Shown here: positions 1 through 33,839 of the stretch, piece by piece
How the letters are laid out: each line of letters opens with the position of its first letter
How positions within the stretch are numbered: position 1 is the first letter of the stretch
Origin: a virus
UHGV virus genome: UHGV-0140552
DNA length: 35,002 bases
Strand: one strand, 5' to 3'
Made by a program: the position numbers and the translations under genes
Notes under the pieces: generated by a model
The model's database searches: none
Seen by the model: only the letters and a program-made list of their open reading frames with translations
What the model was told of the DNA's origin: nothing

Positions 1-1017
1 TCATTTTTTCTGACCACCAACAACCGGCACAATTTTAGTTTTCCTGTCGTAAATCGCCGTTTGTCTCGAATTCTTATGGCCTGAAATCGCCTGTTTCTCC
101 TCGAGGCTTCCTTCCAGATCAGAGACACCTTTCGCTTTCAGATCGTGGAAAGTGAAATCTATCTGCAGGTGTGGGTTCTTTTCCTGCGCTGCGATTTTCG
201 CGTCGCGCCAGCGTGAATTAAAACCGTCACGGGTGTATTTGCTGCCGCTGGTCTGGTGAATGACAAACAGGCTACGGATACCCGGCTTTAACGGCAGGGA
301 ACGGGCGAGGGCGACAGCGGCGCGCAGGCGTGGCGACCATGCTTTGATTTGCTTCACGCCTGTTTTCCCCTGGCGGATAAAGATCCCGGTTTCGCGTATC
401 TGGTCTTCAGTCAAAGCCAGCACATCGCTTTGTCTGGCCAGACACAAATAAGCGATTTCCATGGTGGCGCGAACTACGTCTGGAGCAACATCGTAAACCG
501 CTTTGTATTCTTCGTCGGTGATGTAACGCTCCCGGGCTGCCTCTTTGAACTTCTTAACGCCCTGACAGGGATTATGCTGGACGTAACCCCGCTCATAACC
601 CCAGCGGAATACCCGAGAAAGAAAACTCTTTTCCCGGTTGGCCTGCGTTTTACTGGCCATGCCACGCTGATCCATATAGCGCCGGATGTGTTCCGGTTTA
701 ATTTTATCGGGGTTAACCTTCCCGAACACCGGCAACACTTTGCCTGCGTATTTCGTGTAGTCTTTTCGGGTTTCTGCCGCTAAATCCTGCCAGTCAGGGG
801 AAGACATGAATTGATCGGCCAGAGCCTGAAACGTCTTGCGCTCGACTTCTTCTCCCATGGCTTTTTCATATGCCAGCCATACAGCTGATTGAGGCTCGGA
901 GAGCGCACATAGCCTGATAGCCTTGTTATCTTTATTCCTGAATTCATACGCCGCCTTACCGCGATACACGCGGGGCGGCATCCAGTTATCAGCGGGGTTC
1001 TTACGTTTTCCGGCCAT
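1..1017 (-). CDS. int: Tyrosine-type site-specific integrase (338 aa, stop codon at 1-3)
   Basis: Full ORF on minus strand. C-terminal region has the integrase-like HDLKAKG...SGHKNSRQTAIYDR pattern with a putative catalytic Tyr. Lies at the edge of the phage gene set, directly downstream of a small excisionase-like gene. Confidence 0.88.
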   Translation of the reverse strand: MAGKRKNPADNWMPPRVYRGKAAYEFRNKDNKAIRLCALSEPQSAVWLAYEKAMGEEVERKTFQALADQFMSSPDWQDLAAETRKDYTKYAGKVLPVFGKVNPDKIKPEHIRRYMDQRGMASKTQANREKSFLSRVFRWGYERGYVQHNPCQGVKKFKEAARERYITDEEYKAVYDVAPDVVRATMEIAYLCLARQSDVLALTEDQIRETGIFIRQGKTGVKQIKAWSPRLRAAVALARSLPLKPGIRSLFVIHQTSGSKYTRDGFNSRWRDAKIAAQEKNPHLQIDFTFHDLKAKGVSDLEGSLEEKQAISGHKNSRQTAIYDRKTKIVPVVGGQKK

Positions 1018-4445: not shown

Positions 4446-4769
4446 TTAAAACGGTACGTCGCTTTCTTCAATTGGAGAGTGATCGATGCACAGCAGCTGC
4501 TGAATCTGGTCTTCAATAACACCCAGCTCCTTCTTTGCTTCGGCAGAGATTTTCTCTTTCTTCGCACGAAGGGCATTAACCTGCATACCAATAATGTCGA
4601 TTGGCTCTAAAGCTGGAATGGCAACCTCTACCGTTTTGGTAGTAACGAGGACATACAGATCAGGGTATTGCTGTGACATGTCACAGGTGAATGAGTGATA
4701 AGACGTTGGTAGATATGGGTTGGTTGTGGCCATAACGTAAATAGTTACGGGGATGGTAAGCGCTTCCAT
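4446..4769 (-). CDS. Hypothetical protein (107 aa), first gene of the leftward early operon; C-terminus ...PIEESDVPF
   Basis: ORF with a strong AAGGAG Shine-Dalgarno 5 nt upstream of the ATG at 4769. No recognisable domain. Confidence 0.7.
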   Translation of the reverse strand: MEALTIPVTIYVMATTNPYLPTSYHSFTCDMSQQYPDLYVLVTTKTVEVAIPALEPIDIIGMQVNALRAKKEKISAEAKKELGVIEDQIQQLLCIDHSPIEESDVPF

Positions 4770-5263: not shown

Positions 5264-5650
5264 TTATTTTTGTTTGCGGGCTTGCAGTAACTCCTCAAAT
5301 AAACGATTGAAACCGTCTACTTTTTCGCGAAGTTCCGTTAAATGCCGCTCTTTTTCAGATTCTGGGAGTGACGAAAAGAGTTTTAAAAGCTCTGTTTCTC
5401 GTTCATCTAATGGCGGCGGGGTGTCTACCGGGGTTCCCGGAGTGGCGGCTTCATCGCCGTAAAGTATCCAGGTAGGGCTGCATTGAAGTGCGTTACTTAA
5501 AGCGAAAAGGTTTTTTCCGCCAGGCTCACTATCACCGGTCTCCCACTGGGAGATAGTGACGTGCGCGACGTTAACCAGCTTCGCTAAAGCGCGCTGAGTA
5601 AGTTTGAGATCTTTTCTACGCGCTCTGATGCGCTCACCTGGCATTGTCAT
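5264..5650 (-). CDS. Phage repressor, HTH XRE-family (128 aa), RacR/CI-like, no S24 peptidase domain
   Basis: N-terminal HTH (LTQRALAKLVNVAHVTISQWETG). Divergent from a cro-like gene, with palindromic operators in the 80-bp intergenic region. Too short to carry a LexA-like autocleavage domain. Confidence 0.85.
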   Translation of the reverse strand: MTMPGERIRARRKDLKLTQRALAKLVNVAHVTISQWETGDSEPGGKNLFALSNALQCSPTWILYGDEAATPGTPVDTPPPLDERETELLKLFSSLPESEKERHLTELREKVDGFNRLFEELLQARKQK

Positions 5651-6454: not shown

Positions 6455-6676
6455 ATGAGAACACAAGACCGCATCACCTGGCGGAACGGGTTTCGCCGGA
6501 ACGGGGTACAAGTCCCGATAGAAGATATCGAATTGATTTTCGAGGAACGTCGCGCTGCTGCGCTGACAATCTGGGAACGCTACGAGCTGCGCAAAGCAGA
6601 CCTGCAGGAAGCGGGACTCACCCAGAAAGAATATGAAATCGCCTGCCGCCAGCTGGCTGACTCGCTGGGGATCTGA
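6455..6676 (+). CDS. Hypothetical small protein (73 aa)
   Basis: ATG 6455 is preceded by the conserved GAGGAAAGACCA motif. The longer ORF-track call (6188-6676) overlaps the YdaT-like gene and lacks an RBS. Confidence 0.6.
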   Translation: MRTQDRITWRNGFRRNGVQVPIEDIELIFEERRAAALTIWERYELRKADLQEAGLTQKEYEIACRQLADSLGI

Positions 6677-6678
6677 GT

Positions 6679-7671
6679 ATGAATATTTTGCCATTACTCG
6701 ACAGGCCGATCGCCTTCCAGCGTAGTTTCATTCGCCTGAATATCGGTGTGACGGCTGCACTGTTCCTGTCTCAAATGACTTACTGGACTAACCGATCCGA
6801 CGATGATGGATGGGTATATAAAACCCAGGAAGAATGGGAGGAAGAAACAGGCCTTTCCCGTTACGAACAGGAGGGGGCGCGTAAGAAACTTCGCTCAATT
6901 GGTGTACTGCTGGAAAAAAAGAAAGGTGTACCTGCTCGTCTTTTCTACAAGATTGATAATGATGTTTTATTTCAATCACTTGTAGCCGCAAACAAGAATG
7001 CGGAAAAACCACATACTGGAATGCGGAAAACCAGCAAACAAGTAAGTGGAAAACCAGCAAACTTTCTTACAGAGAATACTACAGAGAATATATATACCCC
7101 TAACCCCTTAGAGGGGGAAGGCGTTGAGTTAATTCTTTCTGATGCACAAAAAGCGCTGGAATTTTACAACGAGCAAACCGGTACCCGCTGCCGTGACCTG
7201 AAACCGTTTGTGATGATGCTGACGCCGACCACCACCCGGGAAGGTTACACCCTGGACGAATTGCAGTTAGTTATCCGCTGGGTGCTGGCCACATGGCGCC
7301 GCCGTGGCGATAGCCTGCCGAAGCCAGCGAACATCTGCCGGGTAAACCGCTTTGATGGTTATCTCGCTGACGCTGAAGCATGGGCGGTGACCGAAGCCGA
7401 TATTGACCCCGAAGCCGTTATGAACGGCTACAACGAAATTTTTGCTGACGCTCTGCCTGCTGCTGAACTCGACACCGACCGCCGCCGGATGATCACCCGT
7501 CTGGCCGCCCATATGAAAAACAAAACCACGGGCGCATTTCTGGGCTATTTCGAAAAATTCCGCGCTGACGCCTCCGATTTTTACTTTGGTGAAAATGGCG
7601 GATGGCGCGCCAGCTTTGACTACCTGATGAAGCCTGAAACATTGCGTAAAACTCGTGAGGGATCGCTATGA
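6679..7671 (+). CDS. Phage replication initiation protein (O-like / replisome organiser, 330 aa)
   Basis: Sits immediately upstream of, and translationally coupled to, the DnaB-type helicase gene. N-terminal DNA-binding-like region and a C-terminal region typical of phage replication proteins. Confidence 0.7.
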   Translation: MNILPLLDRPIAFQRSFIRLNIGVTAALFLSQMTYWTNRSDDDGWVYKTQEEWEEETGLSRYEQEGARKKLRSIGVLLEKKKGVPARLFYKIDNDVLFQSLVAANKNAEKPHTGMRKTSKQVSGKPANFLTENTTENIYTPNPLEGEGVELILSDAQKALEFYNEQTGTRCRDLKPFVMMLTPTTTREGYTLDELQLVIRWVLATWRRRGDSLPKPANICRVNRFDGYLADAEAWAVTEADIDPEAVMNGYNEIFADALPAAELDTDRRRMITRLAAHMKNKTTGAFLGYFEKFRADASDFYFGENGGWRASFDYLMKPETLRKTREGSL

Positions 7672-10754: not shown

Positions 10755-10919
10755 CCATGAATAACAGTACACAGGATTTTATAGACTATGAGTTCTCCAT
10801 GCTTCAAACTGTCACTATAGATTTTGTACTGACGGTATGTTAAAAATGTAGATGGATTTTTGTTTGACAAAAATTTAACCGCTTGTGTCCTTAAGAGTTT
10901 TATTAAAACTAGGTTTTTT

Positions 10920-11402
10920 ATGATAAAAATAGATGAACTAAAAGAAGCCGTTTCTACTTTTGATGACGTTTCTGATCTCAATGTTTCTAACAAAGGAGTT
11001 AATTTTAAATACCAAGGCGTTCAGACTATTATTAATACGTGTGAGAGTGATAAAATTTCAGCGAATAAAATAATTGTTATGAATTCTTTTAAGTCCCCGG
11101 AATCTATTGACAGTAAGATTATGGGTGAAAAAATCGCGGAGATTGTTAATATGACTTCGCTGTCCCCTGCGAAGACTACTTATGTACACTTCCCTGATGA
11201 TGGTGGAGCATTCTTTTTTAGAAATATATTTTCGGATAAATTAAATGCTTTGGAATATAATGACGATGTTTCCAGGCGGCTATTCTTATCTAATTTGAAG
11301 GTTGTTCTTCTCGGAATGATGCTGGAGAATTATAACTGCTTTCATGATGTTAAAGAAGAGGCTTCGAAACTGTGTGAGGCGCTGAATGATGAAAGCAAAT
11401 GA
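10920..11402 (+). CDS. Hypothetical cytoplasmic protein (160 aa), gene 1 of an AT-rich two-gene cassette
   Basis: ORF in a markedly AT-rich island. First ATG at 10920 (the ORF track extends to a TTG at 10860). No recognisable motif. Confidence 0.6.
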   Translation: MIKIDELKEAVSTFDDVSDLNVSNKGVNFKYQGVQTIINTCESDKISANKIIVMNSFKSPESIDSKIMGEKIAEIVNMTSLSPAKTTYVHFPDDGGAFFFRNIFSDKLNALEYNDDVSRRLFLSNLKVVLLGMMLENYNCFHDVKEEASKLCEALNDESK

Positions 11403-11787
11403 TGCTCCACGTATAATTATACAGCTGATTTTAAGTGCGTTTGTATTTTTTGCTTTCTCTTTTAAATATAAGGCCCAATTAATAGGGTTTCTTTCTGAAC
11501 AGGTATATTACCAATTGTTGATAATAACAGTCATATTGACTGGGTATTTTTCACGCTGGATTGATGAGTTGCGTATTTTCTTATGTCATCATTTTATGAT
11601 GACTTGCAATAAGCAATATAAAGTAAAGTATCTCAAGGACAATGCATCGGTTTTGTTAAAGCAGGCAGAGAATGCTAATATTTCAGAAGAAGCGAAAGCA
11701 ATGGTTTCTGAAATGACTGGTTCAGATTTTGAATTGGAGGTTAAAATTAAATCTTTAAGTGAGGAAATAAAAAGAATAAAAGGTTGA
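11386..11787 (+). CDS. Predicted membrane protein with 2 TM helices and a C-terminal coiled coil (133 aa), gene 2 of the AT-rich cassette
   Basis: Two hydrophobic segments (IIIQLILSAFVFFAFSF; QLLIITVILTGYF). Overlaps the upstream gene by 17 nt, implying co-translation. Confidence 0.65.
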   Translation: MMKANDAPRIIIQLILSAFVFFAFSFKYKAQLIGFLSEQVYYQLLIITVILTGYFSRWIDELRIFLCHHFMMTCNKQYKVKYLKDNASVLLKQAENANISEEAKAMVSEMTGSDFELEVKIKSLSEEIKRIKG

Positions 11788-11831
11788 TGGAGTGTTTATT
11801 ATTTGAGATAGGACTAATTATGAATTGTTAA

Positions 11832-11866
11832 ATAAATGAAGAGGTGATCTCACTCTCTTCATTTAT
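11832..11866 (+). terminator. Perfect 12-bp inverted repeat ATAAATGAAGAG / CTCTTCATTTAT with 11-nt loop; possible cassette terminator or protein-binding palindrome
   Basis: Read from sequence, 45 nt downstream of the cassette stop codon. The U-tract is weak. Confidence 0.4.
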
Positions 11867-11940
11867 CATCTAGTAAGTTATCAGTTCCAGTGGACAGAAA
11901 AAATAATATTTTACGTTGAGATAATTCCCTATGCATAGGT

Positions 11941-12147
11941 TCAGAAAATAATAGGGATGAGATGTAGGTTACTGGACAAAAATCGAGCTAGTAGGCCGAG
12001 TACATCGCTATGCTGATCCGATAGGATGATGCGCGAGTTAGTGGCCACATCAAATCGATCAGCAAACGCCTGTGTGGAAAGTGCGATGAGTCGCTGCCAA
12101 TCATCTCCTGCCCGTGTGCTTAAACTGTCAGCATAGCGAACAACCAT
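11941..12147 (-). CDS. Doubtful small ORF (68 aa from ATG 12147)
   Basis: ORF without a convincing Shine-Dalgarno. Could be a gene remnant. Confidence 0.25.
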   Translation of the reverse strand: MVVRYADSLSTRAGDDWQRLIALSTQAFADRFDVATNSRIILSDQHSDVLGLLARFLSSNLHLIPIIF

Positions 12148-14112: not shown

Positions 14113-14409
14113 ATGCCGCTGGTCGCCACCTTCCGTACAGACTGGTTCAGAGTCATTACCGACCTGACCAGAAAAAATCTCACCACTCAGCAAATCGCCG
14201 ATGAACTTGGCGTTTCAAAATCCGCCGTCCTCGGCTGGAAATCTGGATCAGAGCCTCGCCATGGTCACGGTGAAGCGCTGATTGCTCTCTGGTGTCTGGC
14301 TACCAGCTCAGACCGTAAAAAACTCCCTACTGTGCTTTACCGCCAGTGGTGGACGTTCCGCCGCCCTGTTTTTGGTCGGGAAACTGACCAAAAGGGCAAC
14401 ACACAATGA
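14113..14409 (+). CDS. Small HTH DNA-binding protein (98 aa); candidate late-gene regulator by position
   Basis: HTH-like segment LTTQQIADELGVSKSAVLGW. Last gene before the virion module. Confidence 0.45.
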   Translation: MPLVATFRTDWFRVITDLTRKNLTTQQIADELGVSKSAVLGWKSGSEPRHGHGEALIALWCLATSSDRKKLPTVLYRQWWTFRRPVFGRETDQKGNTQ

Positions 14410-16739: not shown

Positions 16740-16969
16740 TCAAAAAAGACGTAACCCCTGAAGACTACCGGCGCATTTTCGAGGAGATGCCCGGCGGGCC
16801 GCAGGTGCTGGACGAATTAACGCGCCGCTTCGGGCGTGAGGTGTATGTCAAAGGCGGTACCGAAGGCGACCGCGAAACCTGTTACCGGGCCGGACAGCGT
16901 TCCGTGCTCGATTTCATTCTGATGCAAATCAACAAAGCAGACGGAGTAAACGACGATGTGGAAGTTTAA
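16736..16969 (+). CDS. Hypothetical small protein (77 aa) between the portal and scaffold genes
   Basis: ORF overlapping the portal stop (ATGA). Confidence 0.5.
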   Translation: MIKKDVTPEDYRRIFEEMPGGPQVLDELTRRFGREVYVKGGTEGDRETCYRAGQRSVLDFILMQINKADGVNDDVEV

Positions 16970-17804
16970 ACACTTATTCATGAACACCGAAACAGGTGCA
17001 GAAGCGCCAGCGGGTAACGCAGGAGGGGATGATGCTGGTAATGGCGATGGTACTCAAAATCCGGGCGGCGGTACTCCTGCTGGTACTTCGCTACTCAGCA
17101 CCGGCGCGGGCGAACAAGGCGCGGATGACTGGCTACCTGAAAAATACCGCGTTATGGGCGATGACGGAAAACTCAACGTTGAAGGCTCAGCCCGCAAACT
17201 GGCGGATGCTTACTCGCACCTTGAAAAGCGCATGGGCAGCGGGGACATGCCGCCGAAAACTGCTGATGAGTATGCGCCAAAGGTAGAAGTCGAGGGCTTT
17301 AAGTGGGACGAATTCAAAGCCGATCCGCGCATGCAATCATTCATGAAATCGGCTCATGCCAAAGGCATCACCAACGATCAGATGGGTTTCATCCTGGGCG
17401 AATATGCACAGCTGGCCCCAGAGCTGGTTAACGGTGCTGCGGCGCTGGATTCGGAAGCCGCCGCCACGCAACTGCGCGAGACGTGGAAAACTGACGCCGA
17501 GTTTAATAAAAACATCGGCCTGGCTTTCCGTGCATTTAATACCCTGGCGGATGACGGCGACAAAGGGCGCATGGACGAAATCGGCAATAACCCGATGGTG
17601 ATCCGCATGTTGGCGAAAATCGGTGCTGAAATGCAGGAGGATGCACCGGCGGGCGGCGATGTGAATCTCGAAGAGCAGCAATCAATCCGCGACCTGATGA
17701 AGTCTCCGGCCTACATGGATCCTAAACACGCCGACCATGAGAATGTTTCCGCCCGGGTTCGCGCCTATTACCAAAAGCGTTACGGCGATCAAACCGTAGC
17801 GTGA
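16956..17804 (+). CDS. Capsid assembly (scaffolding) protein, T7 gp9-like (282 aa)
   Basis: Acidic, Gly/Ala-rich N-terminus and a T7 gp9-like C-terminal tail, positioned between portal and capsid. Confidence 0.65.
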   Translation: MWKFKHLFMNTETGAEAPAGNAGGDDAGNGDGTQNPGGGTPAGTSLLSTGAGEQGADDWLPEKYRVMGDDGKLNVEGSARKLADAYSHLEKRMGSGDMPPKTADEYAPKVEVEGFKWDEFKADPRMQSFMKSAHAKGITNDQMGFILGEYAQLAPELVNGAAALDSEAAATQLRETWKTDAEFNKNIGLAFRAFNTLADDGDKGRMDEIGNNPMVIRMLAKIGAEMQEDAPAGGDVNLEEQQSIRDLMKSPAYMDPKHADHENVSARVRAYYQKRYGDQTVA

Positions 17805-17835
17805 CATGTCACGACTACGGTCTGGGCCACTGGTC

Positions 17836-18135
17836 TTATTGCTTATTAAGCCAATCGAGGCCAGTGGCTGTTATAAAGGTTTGTCTGGTATCGATAAGCC
17901 AACGACCTTCACCGCGTTTAGGGTTGTCTATCTGCGCTCCATCCTCATCAATATATAAGTATTGAACCTGTGAGGATATCAGTCCTTTTTGATACATATA
18001 GAGAATGTGGCCATCAAGTTTATCTTCGCCATACGTCCTTAATAATTTGGTATATCCATCAGTCATTAATGGGTGCGGATAAAACTCTTGCAAATATTTT
18101 AATATATCGAAACAAACATTTTCTTCAATTTTCAT
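17836..18135 (-). CDS. Moron: hypothetical protein (99 aa) on the opposite strand between scaffold and capsid genes
   Basis: AT-rich island. TAAGGAAT Shine-Dalgarno upstream of ATG 18135. Orientation opposes the virion operon. Confidence 0.55.
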   Translation of the reverse strand: MKIEENVCFDILKYLQEFYPHPLMTDGYTKLLRTYGEDKLDGHILYMYQKGLISSQVQYLYIDEDGAQIDNPKRGEGRWLIDTRQTFITATGLDWLNKQ

Positions 18136-18202
18136 CAATTCATTCCTTAGTTGCTTAGAGCAACACCAGTATGGCACTAGTTTTTGTGCAGATATAGGTA
18201 TT

Positions 18203-18218
18203 TGGTCGGGATTCCGAC
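18203..18218. repeat. Hairpin motif GGTCGG-GATT-CCGACC (copy 1 of 4), upstream of the capsid gene; followed by ATCACTCCA at 18235-18243
   Basis: Identical 20-mer TTGGTCGGGATTCCGACCGC recurs at 30919-30938. Confidence 0.8.
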
Positions 18219-18369
18219 CGCGCACCTCGCTAACAATCACTCCATAACCAGCCCGGCGGGGACGCCGGATACCTGATTTCTCCCGCAATGCGCCAGCGCC
18301 AACCGCATTGTGCAGATTTGGGCCGGGAAACCGACACCCCGCAGGCGATTTTTTACTGGAGTGATTTTT

Positions 18370-19275
18370 ATGTCATTTGATACAAACAAGAACATGATCA
18401 CCGCTGCGTTTGTTACGCAGTTTCATGATTCTTTCGAAATTGCTGCACAGCAAAAGGATTCGCGCCTGCAAGCGGCTGTCCATGACCGTGGCAGCATCAC
18501 CGGTGCGTCGTTCACCATCAACGATATGGGCACCATTGAGATGACCCAGATCACCACGCGCTTCGGTGATACTGTCTGGGATGTTCCGGAAGCTGGTACC
18601 CGTAATGCGCTGATGGCCGACTACGGCGTTTTCGTCCCGGTCGAGAAACGCGACCTGCGCAAGCTGATTGCCGACCCGCAGGGGCCGTATTTGCAGCTCA
18701 CCCTGTCCGCCGCCAACCGCAAAAAAGACGATGTTATTTACCGCGCGCTGCTCGATGCGGTACTGCGTAAGACTGAGAACAACGGCGCGTATGCATCCGT
18801 TACCCTCCCGGCCTCGCAGAAAATCGTTGCTGGTGGTACCGGCATGACCAAAGCCAAACTGATCGCAGCAAAAGCGATGTTCCGCCGTAACGAGTGTGAC
18901 GAGCAGAACGGCGAAGAGCTGTACATGACGTACAACGCCGACATGCTGACGCAGATCCTCAGCGATACCACGCTGACCAGCGCCGACTTTATGGCGGTGA
19001 AAATGCTTCAGGAAGGTGCGGTAAACGGTAACTGGCTGGGCTTTAAATGGCTGGCTTACGAGAAACTGGACTCTGTGACCGCCGAAAGCGTCACCACCAA
19101 AACCGCCGCCGCCTGGTGTAAGTCCGCTGTGCATTTCGGTACCGGCGCTGAGTACAACGTCGATATCGGCCCGCGTCGCGATAAAAATAACACCATCCAG
19201 ATTTCCGTTGATGCGTCCTATGGCGCTGGCCGCGCCAACGAGAAAAAAGTCGTTGCCATCGATTTTGTAGCATAA
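18370..19275 (+). CDS. Major capsid protein (301 aa)
   Basis: Position after the scaffold gene, size, and GGAG Shine-Dalgarno. Assigned by synteny; similarity to T7 gp10 was not obvious by eye. Confidence 0.6.
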   Translation: MSFDTNKNMITAAFVTQFHDSFEIAAQQKDSRLQAAVHDRGSITGASFTINDMGTIEMTQITTRFGDTVWDVPEAGTRNALMADYGVFVPVEKRDLRKLIADPQGPYLQLTLSAANRKKDDVIYRALLDAVLRKTENNGAYASVTLPASQKIVAGGTGMTKAKLIAAKAMFRRNECDEQNGEELYMTYNADMLTQILSDTTLTSADFMAVKMLQEGAVNGNWLGFKWLAYEKLDSVTAESVTTKTAAAWCKSAVHFGTGAEYNVDIGPRRDKNNTIQISVDASYGAGRANEKKVVAIDFVA

Positions 19276-19898: not shown

Positions 19899-21889
19899 TG
19901 CGCGCGAACCTGATAAAAACCAATTTTACCGCGGGTGAAATTTCCCCGCGCCTGATGGGGCGTGTTGATATCGCCCGCTATGCCAACGGTGCAAAAATTA
20001 TCGAAAACGCGGTGTGCGTGGTGCAGGGCGGTGTCGTTCGCCGACCGGGTACGCGCTTTGCCGCTGCCGCTAAATATGGTGACCGGACAGCACGACTGAT
20101 CCCCTACGTCTTTAACCGCTCGCAGGCGTACATGCTCGAATTTGGCGACGGGTATCTGCGCATCTACCAGAACGGCCGGCAGCTGGTAAACGACGATAAT
20201 ACCCCGTATGAAATCGCCAGCCCGTACACCGTCGATATGTTGTCTGAGGTGAATTACGTGCAGGGCGCTGACACGATGTTTTTAGTGCACCAGAGCGTCC
20301 CGCCGCACCGCTTGCAGCGTAAGGGGCAAACTGATTGGGTACTGGAAGCCGCGCCGTTTATCGTGGAACCATTCGACGAAATCCGCGACACGCCGGAGAA
20401 ATGGTGTAAGCCATCGGTTAAAGAATTCGTCGGCTCAGAAATCACGCTGACGCTCAGTGATGCCGAACCCGCAGATGATGACGATTCCCCCGCGTTTACT
20501 GGTACCGGCTGGGTATCGGAGGACGTTGGTTCGTACGTTCGTATTAACAGCGGTCTGGTGCTAATTAAGAGCATCACCAGCGCGCAGATTGCTGTCGGCA
20601 CCATCCGCACCGATTTAAGCGCAACGCAGGCGGCATCCCCCGGAGCCTGGACACGTGAAGATACTGTCTGGACGGAGGAATTTGGCTACCCCGGCGCGGT
20701 GACGCTGTACCAGCAGCGGCTGGTTCTGGCTGGTTCCCCGCAGTACCCGCAAACAATCTGGTGGAGCGAAACCGGCGTTTACCTGTCGTTTGAGCTGGGA
20801 ACGGACGACGACGACGCGATCAGCTTTACGCTGTCTTCTGACCAGTTAAACCCGATCGTGCATCTGGCGCAGATGAATACGCTTATCGCGCTGACGTACG
20901 GCGGCGAGTTTACAATCACTGCCGGCAGCGACGCGGCGATCACCCCGACCAATATTTCGGTAAAAAATCCCAGCCCGTACGGCTGCAACAGCATTCGCCC
21001 GGTTCGTGTCGGTACCGAAATTATGTTTATCCAGCGTGCCGGGAAAAAACTGTATGCCGTGGCGTATGACCCCGACAGCTACGTTTCGTATTCCGCCAAT
21101 GATTTAACGGTGCTGGCCGAACACATCACGGCCGGCTGCGTCCTCGATATGGCGTATCAGCAACAGCCTGATGCGTTCGTGTGGCTGATCCGCGCCGATG
21201 GCGTACTGGTGACGATGGGTATCGACCGGGCGCAGGATGTAGTCGCATGGTCACGCCAGATCACCGATGGCGTTTTTGAATCGGTGGCGAGTATTCCCTC
21301 GGAAAGCGACGACGTGATTTATGTTCTGGTGCGCCGGGAAGTTAACGGCCAGACCGTTCGTTATGTTGAAGTATTCGACAGCAACCTGAATACCGATTCC
21401 GCAGTAACCGGCTCCAGTTCAGAAGGTGCCACCACGTGGACAGGTCTTTCTCACCTCAATGGAAAAACGGTTGATGTGGTGGCCGATGGTTCCGTGATGC
21501 CGCAGGCAACGGTAACAGACGGGCAAATCACTCTCAGCCGCAAAGCGAAAAAAATCGAAGTAGGCCTGCATTACGAAACCACCATCCAGACGCTGACGCC
21601 GGAAATCTCAACGACAGAAGGCACCACGCAGAACGCCCGCAAGCGTACCAGCGAAGTCACGCTCCGCTTTATGGAAACCACTGGCGCGGAGTGCAACGGT
21701 CAGGTGATCCCCTTCCGTACCTTCGGCCCAAAAATCCTTAACCAGCCCGCGCCACTTTTCACCGGTGATCATTATTTCGGGAAACTTGGCTGGGAGCGCG
21801 GGGAAGACACTTTGATTATTCAGCAACGCCAGCCGCTGCCGTTTCATCTGCTGGCGATTATTTTCACGTTCTCCAGCAACGGGGGCTAA
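19898..21889 (+). CDS. Tail tubular protein B, gp12-like (663 aa)
   Basis: Large protein translationally coupled to the gp11-like gene. Assigned by synteny. Confidence 0.6.
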   Translation: MRANLIKTNFTAGEISPRLMGRVDIARYANGAKIIENAVCVVQGGVVRRPGTRFAAAAKYGDRTARLIPYVFNRSQAYMLEFGDGYLRIYQNGRQLVNDDNTPYEIASPYTVDMLSEVNYVQGADTMFLVHQSVPPHRLQRKGQTDWVLEAAPFIVEPFDEIRDTPEKWCKPSVKEFVGSEITLTLSDAEPADDDDSPAFTGTGWVSEDVGSYVRINSGLVLIKSITSAQIAVGTIRTDLSATQAASPGAWTREDTVWTEEFGYPGAVTLYQQRLVLAGSPQYPQTIWWSETGVYLSFELGTDDDDAISFTLSSDQLNPIVHLAQMNTLIALTYGGEFTITAGSDAAITPTNISVKNPSPYGCNSIRPVRVGTEIMFIQRAGKKLYAVAYDPDSYVSYSANDLTVLAEHITAGCVLDMAYQQQPDAFVWLIRADGVLVTMGIDRAQDVVAWSRQITDGVFESVASIPSESDDVIYVLVRREVNGQTVRYVEVFDSNLNTDSAVTGSSSEGATTWTGLSHLNGKTVDVVADGSVMPQATVTDGQITLSRKAKKIEVGLHYETTIQTLTPEISTTEGTTQNARKRTSEVTLRFMETTGAECNGQVIPFRTFGPKILNQPAPLFTGDHYFGKLGWERGEDTLIIQQRQPLPFHLLAIIFTFSSNGG

Positions 21890-28449: not shown

Positions 28450-28968
28450 TTACGACTTACATGATTCGGGGGAAACCCCAAACCCAAACATGAGGGTTTT
28501 CCCTGAATCACTGTAGTAATTGATCATTATTTTTTTATTTTCTTTTCGGGTTTCGTAGAATAGCCGCTCTTGAGATGACACTGGGTAAAATCCATCTGGT
28601 GCACAATACAAATCCCTTAAATTTTTCAATGTTGAATTTTTAGCGTCTTCTGATGTAAATTTTATAAAATCGTCTGTGTAAACATTGGCATTGTAACTAG
28701 ATATGGTTTTACTTCCTTCCACATAGTGAGTATTAGTTTCACTAAAATCTGCGTTTTCTTTATAGGTTCGCAAGTGTAATACCGATACATGGATCTCAAT
28801 TTTTTTACCAGTGTCGATACCGTTAATGACCGTATAGTCGGTATATGGATTGGTAATCTGTATTCCTGGTCCGGATATAGGAACGATATATTTAGAGTCA
28901 TCAACTAAATCGGTTGATGCGAATGCTGCAAAGTGAAAGATTAGCAACAATGGAATTAATATCTTCAT
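28450..28968 (-). CDS. Moron: secreted/periplasmic protein with signal peptide (172 aa)
   Basis: AT-rich island, opposite strand. N-terminal signal peptide MKILIPLLLIFHFAAFA|STD. AAGGAG Shine-Dalgarno. Confidence 0.7.
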   Translation of the reverse strand: MKILIPLLLIFHFAAFASTDLVDDSKYIVPISGPGIQITNPYTDYTVINGIDTGKKIEIHVSVLHLRTYKENADFSETNTHYVEGSKTISSYNANVYTDDFIKFTSEDAKNSTLKNLRDLYCAPDGFYPVSSQERLFYETRKENKKIMINYYSDSGKTLMFGFGVSPESCKS

Positions 28969-28987: not shown

Positions 28988-29003
28988 AGTCAGGATTCCG
29001 ACC
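28988..29003. repeat. Hairpin motif variant AGTCAG-GATT-CCGACC (copy 2 of 4), upstream of the terminase genes
   Basis: Read from sequence; shares the GATTC core and flanking arms with the other three copies. Confidence 0.7.
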
Positions 29004-29392: not shown

Positions 29393-30999
29393 TTTCATTC
29401 GTCGCCTTTTTCATCATATGGGCGGAGCGGATGGGGTGGGAGGTTCCCGACTGCCATTATCGAGCCTGCCACTGGTTGGAACACCGCGGGGATCTCGCGG
29501 TGCTTCGCTGTTTTCGTGGCTTTGGTAAATCTACCATTCTGGCGGTGTATAACGCATGGCGATATTACCAGAACCGCCAGTACCGCATTCTTCACCAGTC
29601 TGAAGCTGACGGCACCGCGTACAAAACCAGCCGCGATACGCAGAACGTTTTACGCAATCACCCACTGACCAAAGGCATGCTACCGGACGGACAGGGAACC
29701 GTTGAACAGTGGTGGGTTAACGGCTCTCTGGATATGCGTAACGGCAGCATGTACGCAAAGGGGATCCTCTCTAACGTTACCTCGGCCCGCGCTGATGAAT
29801 GCCAGAACGATGACGTAGAAGTACCCCGCAATATCCAGACGCCAGAGGCGCGGGAAAAGCTGCGTTATCGTCTCGGTGAACAGACACACATTCTTGTCCC
29901 CGGCGGGCGAAAGCTGTTTATCGGCACGCCGCATACCCACGATAGCCTTTACGATGAGGTTGAATCTATGGGCGCCGACTGTCTGACCATCAAACTATTC
30001 GGTAAAGAATTTAGAATCGAGGAAAAACAGGCCACCGCGAGCCGTTACTCGTTACCGTTCCGGCCGGAATATGTTTTCGTCGGTATTCACATTGGCGCGC
30101 GACTGCTCGTTGAAGGTGTTGATTATCGTCTTAACGATGACGGTATCGAGTTTGCCGAGGCTCCCGGCACCACGGTTGACTGTTACGCCGATTGTGAATG
30201 GCCAGAAAGGTTCACTCCGGAGGAAATGACAAAGCGCCGTCGCGAGACTCGCACAATTAACGAATGGGACAGCCAGTACCAGCTGCACAGTAAACCGGTT
30301 GGCGAGGTTCGTCTCGATCCCGACCGCATACGCGAATACAACGTACAGCCTGAAATCCGGTACGCGAACCGCTCCTGCTCGATGTGGCTTGGCCAGACGC
30401 AAATTGTTGGTGCTGTTGCCTGGTGGGATGTGGCCACCGGCAAAGTTAAGGCCGACGCCTCGGCGTTCTCTCTGATTTTCACCGACGCACGCGGGCATCT
30501 GTACTGGCATGTTTGCCAGGGGCTTACGGGCGAACTGGCGGAATTCGACGACAACGACAAAATCACCGGCGGTCAGGTGATGCAGATTAAAGAGCTGGTG
30601 CTTAAATACCAGATCCCGCTGGTCTGCGTCGAGGTGAACGGCCCGGGCAGCTTTGCCGGGAAATTGCTGATTCAGGCACTAAAGGGTACCGGCTGCGGCG
30701 TACGGGAAGAATTCAGCGTGACCAATAAACAAAAGCGCATCCTCGATGCATTCGAAGCGCCGCTGTCGTCGCGCTTCCTCTGGGCGCATACCGACGTGCT
30801 CGACGGCCCAATGTATGACCAGATGCGCGACTTTAACCCGGCGCTGACTAATCAGCCAGATGACTTTATCGACTCTGGCTCTGGCGCAATCAGCTCAACA
30901 CCAGTGCGCATTGGTAAATTGGTCGGGATTCCGACCGCACAGGCGCGGGAACATTGGCAACCAAATGATGGCGATCACATGGTCGCCGTAGATTACTAG
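29389..30999 (+). CDS. Terminase large subunit (536 aa)
   Basis: Walker A-like FRGFGKST near the N-terminus, size, and coupling to the small-subunit gene. Confidence 0.75.
   Translation: MISFVAFFIIWAERMGWEVPDCHYRACHWLEHRGDLAVLRCFRGFGKSTILAVYNAWRYYQNRQYRILHQSEADGTAYKTSRDTQNVLRNHPLTKGMLPDGQGTVEQWWVNGSLDMRNGSMYAKGILSNVTSARADECQNDDVEVPRNIQTPEAREKLRYRLGEQTHILVPGGRKLFIGTPHTHDSLYDEVESMGADCLTIKLFGKEFRIEEKQATASRYSLPFRPEYVFVGIHIGARLLVEGVDYRLNDDGIEFAEAPGTTVDCYADCEWPERFTPEEMTKRRRETRTINEWDSQYQLHSKPVGEVRLDPDRIREYNVQPEIRYANRSCSMWLGQTQIVGAVAWWDVATGKVKADASAFSLIFTDARGHLYWHVCQGLTGELAEFDDNDKITGGQVMQIKELVLKYQIPLVCVEVNGPGSFAGKLLIQALKGTGCGVREEFSVTNKQKRILDAFEAPLSSRFLWAHTDVLDGPMYDQMRDFNPALTNQPDDFIDSGSGAISSTPVRIGKLVGIPTAQAREHWQPNDGDHMVAVDY
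30921..30936. repeat. Hairpin motif GGTCGG-GATT-CCGACC (copy 3 of 4), inside the 3' end of the terminase gene, upstream of the tail fibre gene
   Basis: Exact copy of the 18203-18218 hairpin and its 20-nt context. Confidence 0.8.
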
Positions 31000-33823: not shown

Positions 33824-33839
33824 AGTCAGGATTCTGACC
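33824..33839. repeat. Hairpin motif variant AGTCAG-GATT-CTGACC (copy 4 of 4), upstream of the lysis cassette; followed by ATCACTCCA at 33861-33869
   Basis: Read from sequence. Confidence 0.7.

Follow-up and report, generated by a model that had tools for sequence, protein, structure and literature searches.

An opposite-strand moron cassette encoding a predicted acidic winged-helix protein in the scaffold-capsid gap of a temperate podovirus

The virus genome UHGV-0140552, a stretch of 35,002 nucleotides that was analysed at its full length and is called the window below, is essentially one temperate podovirus prophage of ~35 kb with T7-type virion genes. Between its scaffold and capsid genes lies a minus-strand gene for a protein of 99 amino acids (aa) (17836..18135; ATG at 18135-18133, TAA at 17838-17836; translation MKIEENVCFDILKYLQEFYPHPLMTDGYTKLLRTYGEDKLDGHILYMYQKGLISSQVQYLYIDEDGAQIDNPKRGEGRWLIDTRQTFITATGLDWLNKQ), and we found this gene to be a horizontally exchanged single-gene cassette, inserted by recombination. 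It is very probable that the cassette is a moron encoding a genuine winged-helix protein. On balance, we lean toward reading the whole as a lysogen-expressed moron cassette whose winged-helix product serves as a binder in biological conflict, while the functional component taken by itself, i.e., a conflict binder expressed in the lysogen, is put forward as a tentative proposal.

Several lines of evidence indicate that the open reading frame (ORF) is a real and mobile gene. The longest mechanical reading frame reaches a TTG at 18288, beyond the ATG at 18135, and we assigned the start to this ATG because the homologues all begin with MKI or MEI. A ribosome-binding site (RBS), AAGGA (18144..18148, minus strand), was read from the sequence 8 nt before the ATG and is the same in alleles L011 and L012. 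These features agree with a first-pass annotation made from the sequence alone, which had described an AT-rich ORF with a good RBS, antisense to the virion genes. The GC content of the ORF is 0.367 and that of the 383-bp insert 0.384, against 0.55 in the scaffold and capsid genes and 0.518 in the whole window, and shuffling the insert produced an ATG-initiated ORF of at least 99 aa in only 42 of 20000 trials (0.2%). The same annotation had made its proposal depend on conservation of the ORF in related elements, and conserved it is: identical copies occur on at least 24 contigs, alleles of 87-89% identity lie in every case at the same site in the scaffold-capsid gap, and a further allele there (L102), ~50% identical to the window protein, is followed by a canonical terminator (CAGCCCGC-TTGC-GCGGGCTTTTT). 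No frameshift or stop was found in the alleles compared, L102 included. One identical copy is located on a contig of ENA ERZ1743278 (L004), where the prophage breaks off behind GNAT and continues into ABC-transporter genes; here the cassette has persisted in what is left of a decayed or rearranged prophage.

Alignment with the Yersinia phage YeP4 and two Escherichia coli prophages delimited the cassette at 383 bp (17814..18196), and showed that it stands in place of a ~45-bp spacer and an intrinsic terminator that are present in cargo-free relatives. The distance between the scaffold and capsid genes is accordingly 565 bp here versus 213-217 bp in YeP4 and E. coli STEC383. Comparison with such relatives, which the first-pass annotation had recommended, makes its label “moron” a fair one, as the gene is extra, AT-rich, on the opposite strand, and absent where the gap measures ~210 bp; it separates two genes that are direct neighbours in related phages, and its base composition deviates from that of the surrounding genome. 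Between the window and L011, the cassette is 94.5% identical, above the 75-85% identity of the flanking genes, which indicates horizontal exchange. At the same junction, the prophage of E. coli 23GD11002 has a different insert with an 83-aa minus-strand ORF; we compared this cargo with the 99-aa protein as a possible relative and found the two to be unrelated.

The protein was then characterized by structure prediction and homology, both suggested as checks in the first-pass annotation, and these together yielded a distant family and a confident winged-helix model. The AlphaFold2 model, built from a 15-sequence alignment (pLDDT 94, pTM 0.82), comprises helices at residues 5-18, 24-35, and 37-49, a strand at 57-60, a long wing loop, a second strand at 78-81, and a helix at 90-98. 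According to this model, the 99-aa protein is a small winged helix with one C-terminal helix; it is acidic and cytoplasmic. Foldseek searches of the PDB returned as top matches a 103-aa PadR, Pex, and YjcQ (2hgc, probability 0.90), all with weak E-values, and searches of BFVD were topped by phage YjcQ proteins (probability 1.0, TM-score 0.58-0.64). At the sequence level, phmmer against the full database recovered only some dozen genuine relatives, 89-116 aa long, and a profile search recovered 19 clusters; homologues at 31-50% identity retain the length and the hydrophobic pattern. A match to PHROG 3983 was also obtained (E = 3.8e-5, 24.4 bits; residues 1-97 of the query on positions 2-83 of the 165-position profile). 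The query did not match the Pfam models of YjcQ and DUF2513, and the best family members fell below the cutoff, with YjcQ at E = 0.013 (16.1 bits vs a cutoff of 23.3) and DUF2513 at E = 0.17; UniRef labels one family member “DUF2513 domain-containing”. The PADLOC-DB models gave 0 families at E <= 1 for the 99-aa protein, and a profile search of the PDB gave nothing beyond noise at E > 0.1. Two groups of apparent matches were set aside. The phmmer matches to giant SSSPR-51/MucBP repeat surface proteins (P0009-P0020) were rejected as driven by composition and repeats, because only stretches resembling “Y-DEDG--I” match, many times over and in unrelated architectures, and a similarity to MORN/YwqK or YD repeats was dropped as the same kind of artefact.

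The variation among alleles is concentrated in one part of this fold. Codons 56-71 (17923..17970, minus strand), which encode strand 1 and the wing loop, differ between alleles by 8-10 nonsynonymous and 0-0.5 synonymous changes, while the remainder of the gene (the core) has a ratio of nonsynonymous to synonymous differences per site (pN/pS) of 0.21-0.5. For the window versus L011, the wing is distinct from the core (Fisher p = 0.011) and the core is under purifying selection (binomial p = 0.0065). Indels and variation in wing length across the family fall in the same region, and the basic wing loop is wholly absent in four family members. This pattern suggests that the wing is under diversifying selection, as would be expected of a specificity determinant. 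It also bears on a less favourable account, in which the ORF is decaying or non-functional in foreign AT-rich DNA, or has its role as RNA, through an antisense transcript that damps leaky scaffold and capsid expression. The rate ratio for the whole gene (dN/dS, 0.6-1.1 between close alleles) could be cited for such an account, as could the lack of an annotated family and the fact that the comparable ORF of 83 aa in the sister E. coli prophage received no annotation from PGAP. However, the whole-gene ratio is uninformative before wing and core are split, after which the core stands at a pN/pS of 0.2; the preserved length and hydrophobic pattern of the divergent homologues, the confident fold, and the intact reading frames of the alleles also speak for a functional protein, and we regard this account as very improbable.

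Having established the gene, we explored the site that it occupies in 100 enterobacterial relatives with capsid identity >= 87%. The first-pass annotation had viewed the position as unusual for an insertion, but the gap turned out to be a busy accessory-gene hotspot with cargo in 64 of the 100 relatives. It is empty (206-219 bp) at 36 loci, holds at least one plus-strand sponge homologue at 41 (counting in L134, a “mixed” locus where a doubtful minus-strand ORF of 62 aa is found as well), other plus-strand cargo at 7, minus-strand cargo only at 15, and no ORF >= 45 aa at 1. The sponge homologues are Acb4-like at 25 loci (PF13876, E down to 1.7e-34; PDB 9e4w), Acb2-like at 12 (PF24729, E = 3.6e-17; PDB 8h2j and 7uq2), and Tad2-like at 8 (PDB 9eib and 8v3e at E = 2e-16), where PF13876 corresponds to Acb4 (bioRxiv 10.1101/2024.12.30.630793; bioRxiv 10.1101/2025.07.12.664507). 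Phages with capsids 98-100% identical to that of the window hold different cargo, and turnover must therefore be fast. Some loci contain arrays, such as L071, where an ORF of 54 aa is combined with one Tad2-like and one Acb2-like gene, and several further cargo families are uncharacterised, among them membrane/coiled-coil proteins of 158-190 aa and 138-298 aa.

Cargo on the two strands differs in more than orientation. Plus-strand sponge cargo has a mean GC content of 0.51 and keeps the backbone terminator (AAAGCCAGCC-loop-GCTGGCTTTTT) at 29 of 40 loci, similar to empty gaps (33 of 36), whereas minus-strand cargo has a mean GC content of 0.40 and keeps this terminator at only 1 of 15. All 15 minus-strand cargos are AT-rich, and every minus-strand cassette carries its own hairpin 3' of its stop codon; these cargos belong to at least eight unrelated families and include a signal-peptide protein (L063) and a protein with membrane segments (L117). 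The 99-aa gene is a member of this minus-strand class, and a hidden Markov model of its family, run against the other types of hotspot cargo, found no hidden relative.

The company of sponges raises the question of whether the 99-aa protein acts during infection as a counter-defence protein, by a non-sponge mechanism such as blocking a defence sensor or effector. The slot is home to sponge homologues in 41 of the 100 relatives, distributed over three types, and anti-CBASS genes tend to group in anti-defence islands (bioRxiv 10.1101/2024.12.30.630793). A small, acidic protein with one hypervariable surface would suit this role as well. On the other hand, the gene differs from all sponge cargo in orientation and base composition and is related to the known sponges neither in sequence nor in fold. 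Some of the other minus-strand cargos are secreted or membrane proteins, for which counter-defence is an unlikely task, and one family member is a fixed gene of a bacterial chromosome and belongs to no prophage. We thus consider counter-defence during infection an unlikely function, and return to a lysogen-expressed binder as the preferred reading.

How the gene might be expressed was examined from the signals around it. A candidate promoter element on the minus strand, an extended -10 of the form TGn-CATACT (18161..18176; -10 at 18176-18168), lies inside the block CATACTGGTGTTG (18173-18161). The block, as CATACTGGT(G/T)TTG, is retained in L102, the allele of ~50% identity, where the surrounding upstream DNA has diverged, and CATACT is probably the gene's own sigma-70-type -10 element. 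The 5' untranslated region (5'-UTR) contains a small palindrome or hairpin, TTGCT-CTA-AGCAA (18151..18163, minus strand), and distant family members have comparable small palindromes 15-25 nt upstream. At the other end, an inverted repeat (GCCACTGGTCT / AGGCCAGTGGC; 17826..17868, 91% complementary) surrounds the stop codon, and the hairpin of 17826-17868 together with a palindrome stem at 17794-17820 forms a minus-strand 3' end of -29 kcal/mol (z -3.95). Four other minus-strand cassettes (L002, L048, L070, and L128) have only 16-23 nt, i.e., just an RBS, between SL1, a hairpin of the capsid leader, and the cargo start, and their promoter must therefore be part of the conserved backbone, on the strand opposite to the capsid leader. 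A backbone promoter, together with the terminator loss at 14 of the 15 minus-cargo loci, points to leftward transcription that comes in from the side of the leader. The 99-aa gene itself is likely transcribed independently, because it is antisense to the late operon and has its own RBS and a probable -10 of its own. Expression in the lysogen is probable, as minus-strand cargos are AT-rich and some are secreted or membrane proteins, distant family members occupy bor-like positions or lie opposite-strand in a Klebsiella phage, one member is a fixed chromosomal gene, and the upstream block is conserved.

These distant positions are informative in their own right. Among lambdoid-type phages from IMG/VR, the homologue stands alone on the opposite strand, at a lower GC content, between terS and the genes for Rz and endolysin, a slot which in lambda belongs to bor. 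The 157-aa version in Klebsiella phage ST13-OXA48phi12.5 is also a lone opposite-strand gene, and in Atlantibacter one family member is a fixed chromosomal singleton located outside any prophage.

Taken together, we propose that the cassette was acquired by recombination at the scaffold-capsid hotspot of a temperate podovirus, and that its gene would be transcribed apart from the late operon, most likely in the resident prophage and on entry. The product may bind a target stoichiometrically via the face of helix 3 and the wing, with a protein as a likelier target than DNA. The wing would then set specificity in a phage-host or phage-phage conflict, e.g., in rival-phage exclusion or host-factor modulation. 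A binder is preferred over a classical repressor because the family is acidic: the query has an isoelectric point (pI) of 5.0, and 14 of 15 family members have a pI of 4.4-5.7 and a net charge of -2 to -12. For an enzyme, the protein is also too small and too featureless.

A number of observations weigh against this proposal. The strong structural neighbours are all DNA-binding regulators, and residues K73, R74, and R78 at the wing tip are compatible with nucleic-acid binding. The query had no match in Pfam, NCBIfam, or PADLOC, no conserved partner gene was seen beside family members, and the selection signal in the wing is drawn from only three or four alleles. With respect to expression, a consensus promoter scan upstream of the ORF found nothing, the best promoter candidate (TGCCATACT, 18176-18168) is equalled in score by 42% of shuffles, and the window allele has no canonical terminator and no free U tract after its 3' hairpins. 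In addition, the neighbouring sponge cargo could equally favour an anti-defence role during infection over a lysogenic one.

The regulator-like neighbours also call for consideration of a conventional PadR/MarR-like dimeric transcription factor, which would reprogram lysogen transcription from an operator in its own 5'-UTR palindrome (TTGCTCTAAGCAA) or in a host or phage promoter. Two candidate palindromic operators are found near the gene, at 18151-18163 and 17800-17813. Yet the acidity of the family does not suit such a factor, helix 3 (EDKLDGHILYMYQ) is nearly devoid of basic or polar residues that could read DNA, the basic wing loop is missing in four family members, and no helix-turn-helix (HTH) Pfam model matches. 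We therefore rate a transcription factor as improbable, and continue to favour a winged-helix binder expressed from the lysogen.

A broader idea, which we would call doubtful, is that the 99-aa protein founds a new phage-borne conflict family, in which an acidic winged-helix decoy or blocker with wing-set specificity serves in exclusion or in non-sponge counter-defence. If this were true, the scaffold-capsid gap would be a two-way arsenal, with plus-strand sponges on the late operon and minus-strand cassettes read in the opposite direction, in some cases apparently from a promoter that the conserved backbone provides. Morons in phage hotspots are already known, and the fold class is known though functionally blank; the protein family itself is uncharacterised and rare. 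The value of the gene comes from its context, i.e., an unusually active anti-defence and accessory island in a compact, inducible enterobacterial prophage, and uncharacterised genes of anti-defence islands are a standard source of new immune-evasion or exclusion factors. The hotspot context and the wing signal make it a reasonable candidate for functional screening, for which a confident model of its structure, a map of its hypervariable surface, and alleles from nature are at hand.

The survey also recasts two elements near the insertion, a palindrome and a hairpin, as regulatory features of the phage backbone. The first-pass annotation had noted a perfect 14-bp palindrome, CGTGACATGTCACG (17800-17813), overlapping the scaffold stop (TGA, 17802-17804), and this observation is correct; the palindrome forms the core of a larger hairpin, CCGTAG-CGTGACATGTCACG-A-CTACGG (17794..17820). 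Its suggested function as a bidirectional terminator or an insulator for the insertion was not borne out, as the element folds strongly but lacks a free U tract on either strand, is present in cargo-free relatives, and has a second copy in the early region. Specifically, cargo-free relatives (L003, L025, and L027-31) have the core GTGACATGTCAC behind their scaffold stop, the 14th base varies in L011-L013, and the second copy, CTGTGACATGTCACAG (4670-4685), is contained in a leftward gene of the early region. A sister E. coli prophage (L061) has the same pair at 6598-6611 and 20145-20158, so that a near-identical palindrome of 14-16 bp, (C)TGTGACATGTCACA(G), is shared, two per prophage. The early copy reads CTGT-N8-ACAG, resembling a LexA box, and the late copy GCGT...ACGA, with the internal 12 bp as the conserved part. 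Judging from this distribution, the palindrome belongs to the phage backbone and not to the cassette, and it looks like a site bound by a regulatory protein or a conserved phage hairpin.

Similarly, hairpin motif copy 1 (GGTCGGGATTCCGACC), which the annotation had placed in the region upstream of the ORF, does occur there (18204-18219, plus strand; 69-84 nt from the ATG), but it is not a feature of the insertion, because it is SL1 of the plus-strand capsid leader and is conserved in relatives with and without cargo. This leader is a structured 5' region of the capsid gene of 173 nt with four stem-loops (18197..18369, plus strand), conserved in all enterobacterial relatives and preceded in cargo-free ones by an intrinsic terminator. 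Its identity reaches 95% where the coding flanks of the compared backbones share 75-85%. In the alignment, 95.6% of cells are paired, and compensatory changes occur in 13 of 28 pairs; two-sided changes number 41 cells, compared with 12.5 +/- 2.6 in shuffled alignments and at most 15 in slid controls, and the observed covariation score was reached by 0 of 500 shuffles. No Rfam family matches the leader, which is a candidate new cis-regulatory RNA. The hairpin motif GGTCGGGAWWCCGACC and its variants recur 50-96 nt upstream of late genes, on the plus strand only (14374-14389, 18204-18219, 18320-18334, 28988-29003, 30921-30936, and 33824-33839), with 7 matches versus 0.27 expected; this motif could be a late-promoter or activator site, or an RNA processing or stabilising hairpin.

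With regard to the wider prophage, the window starts with an integrase gene (1-1017, minus strand), followed by genes for a CI-like repressor (5264-5650, minus strand) and an O-like replication initiator (6679-7671). Other genes encode DnaB, NinB, a T7-type portal (PF12236), Bbp19, tail tube proteins A and B, GNAT, internal virion proteins, terminase, and a T7-type fibre. The insertion is flanked on the left by the gene of a scaffold-like protein (16956..17804, plus strand; phrog_3742 / phrog_458), whose homologue in YeP4 carries the annotation endoprotease, and on the right by the major capsid protein gene (18370..19275, plus strand; PF19821, E = 2e-70; phrog_3437). The nearest isolated phages are the Yersinia phages YeP4/5/6, and the sister prophage in E. 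coli 23GD11002 adjoins a tRNA-Leu gene. Inside the O-like initiator gene, three tandem 23-bp repeats (6986-7054, plus strand; CCGCAAACAAGAATGCGGAAAAA and variants) look like origin iterons of the lambdoid type. An AT-rich block at 10800-12000 (plus strand, GC 0.30-0.37) contains ORFs 10860-11402 (180 aa) and 11386-11787 (133 aa), neither with a match in Pfam or PHROG, and its equivalent in the sister E. coli prophage holds a DUF2971 gene and an IS110 element; the block looks like another cargo hotspot, and is possibly a two-gene defence module. The other opposite-strand AT-rich gene (28450-28968, minus strand; 172 aa, GC 0.33; phrog_8033, function unassigned) sits between an internal virion protein gene and a small terminase-like gene, where the sister prophage has a different minus-strand gene of 130 aa.

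Finally, we compared the 99-aa gene and its product with known systems. YjcQ (PF09639, PDB 2hgc) and DUF2513 (PF10711) proteins share its size of ~90-100 aa, its three helices, beta wing, and C-terminal helix, as well as a helix 3 motif of the type HLxYLxEKGLI and a C-terminal “ITxxGxDYL”. Our literature search on DUF2513 and YjcQ found nothing on function, and since both are without known function, the resemblance gives a fold class and not a mechanism. PHROG 3983, whose function is unassigned, is covered by the 99-aa protein only in the N-terminal half of the profile, and the PHROG 3983 protein of Klebsiella phage ST13-OXA48phi12.5 has a C-terminal helical half that is absent here. The winged-helix-turn-helix fold is also shared with PadR subfamily-2 and MarR repressors; unlike these, the 99-aa protein is acidic, its helix 3 is not basic, and the dimerisation helices of MarR are absent; identity is 9-22%, and neither the protein nor its family matches the MarR, PadR, or HTH Pfam models. 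The sponges Acb2/Tad1, Acb4, and Tad2 resemble the gene as small, single-gene cargo of the identical intergenic slot (41 of 100), but they lie on the plus strand inside the late operon with a GC content of ~0.51 and the terminator kept, whereas the 99-aa gene is on the minus strand with a GC content of 0.37 and the terminator gone; its protein has no Pfam or PDB sequence match to the sponge families (PF24729, PF13876, and PF11195), and its fold matches winged helices only.

A close parallel is found in the morons of temperate phages, in the sense of Juhala and Hendrix, such as lambda bor and HK97 gp15. Like them, the 99-aa gene is an extra, AT-rich gene between otherwise adjacent genes, oriented opposite to the late operon, with its own RBS, a probable promoter of its own, and a 3' hairpin, and its distant family members occupy a bor-like slot. 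In contrast to morons such as bor, however, its promoter candidate scores no better than chance, its 3' hairpin in the window allele is not a canonical terminator, and its product is not an envelope protein but a predicted cytoplasmic winged helix.

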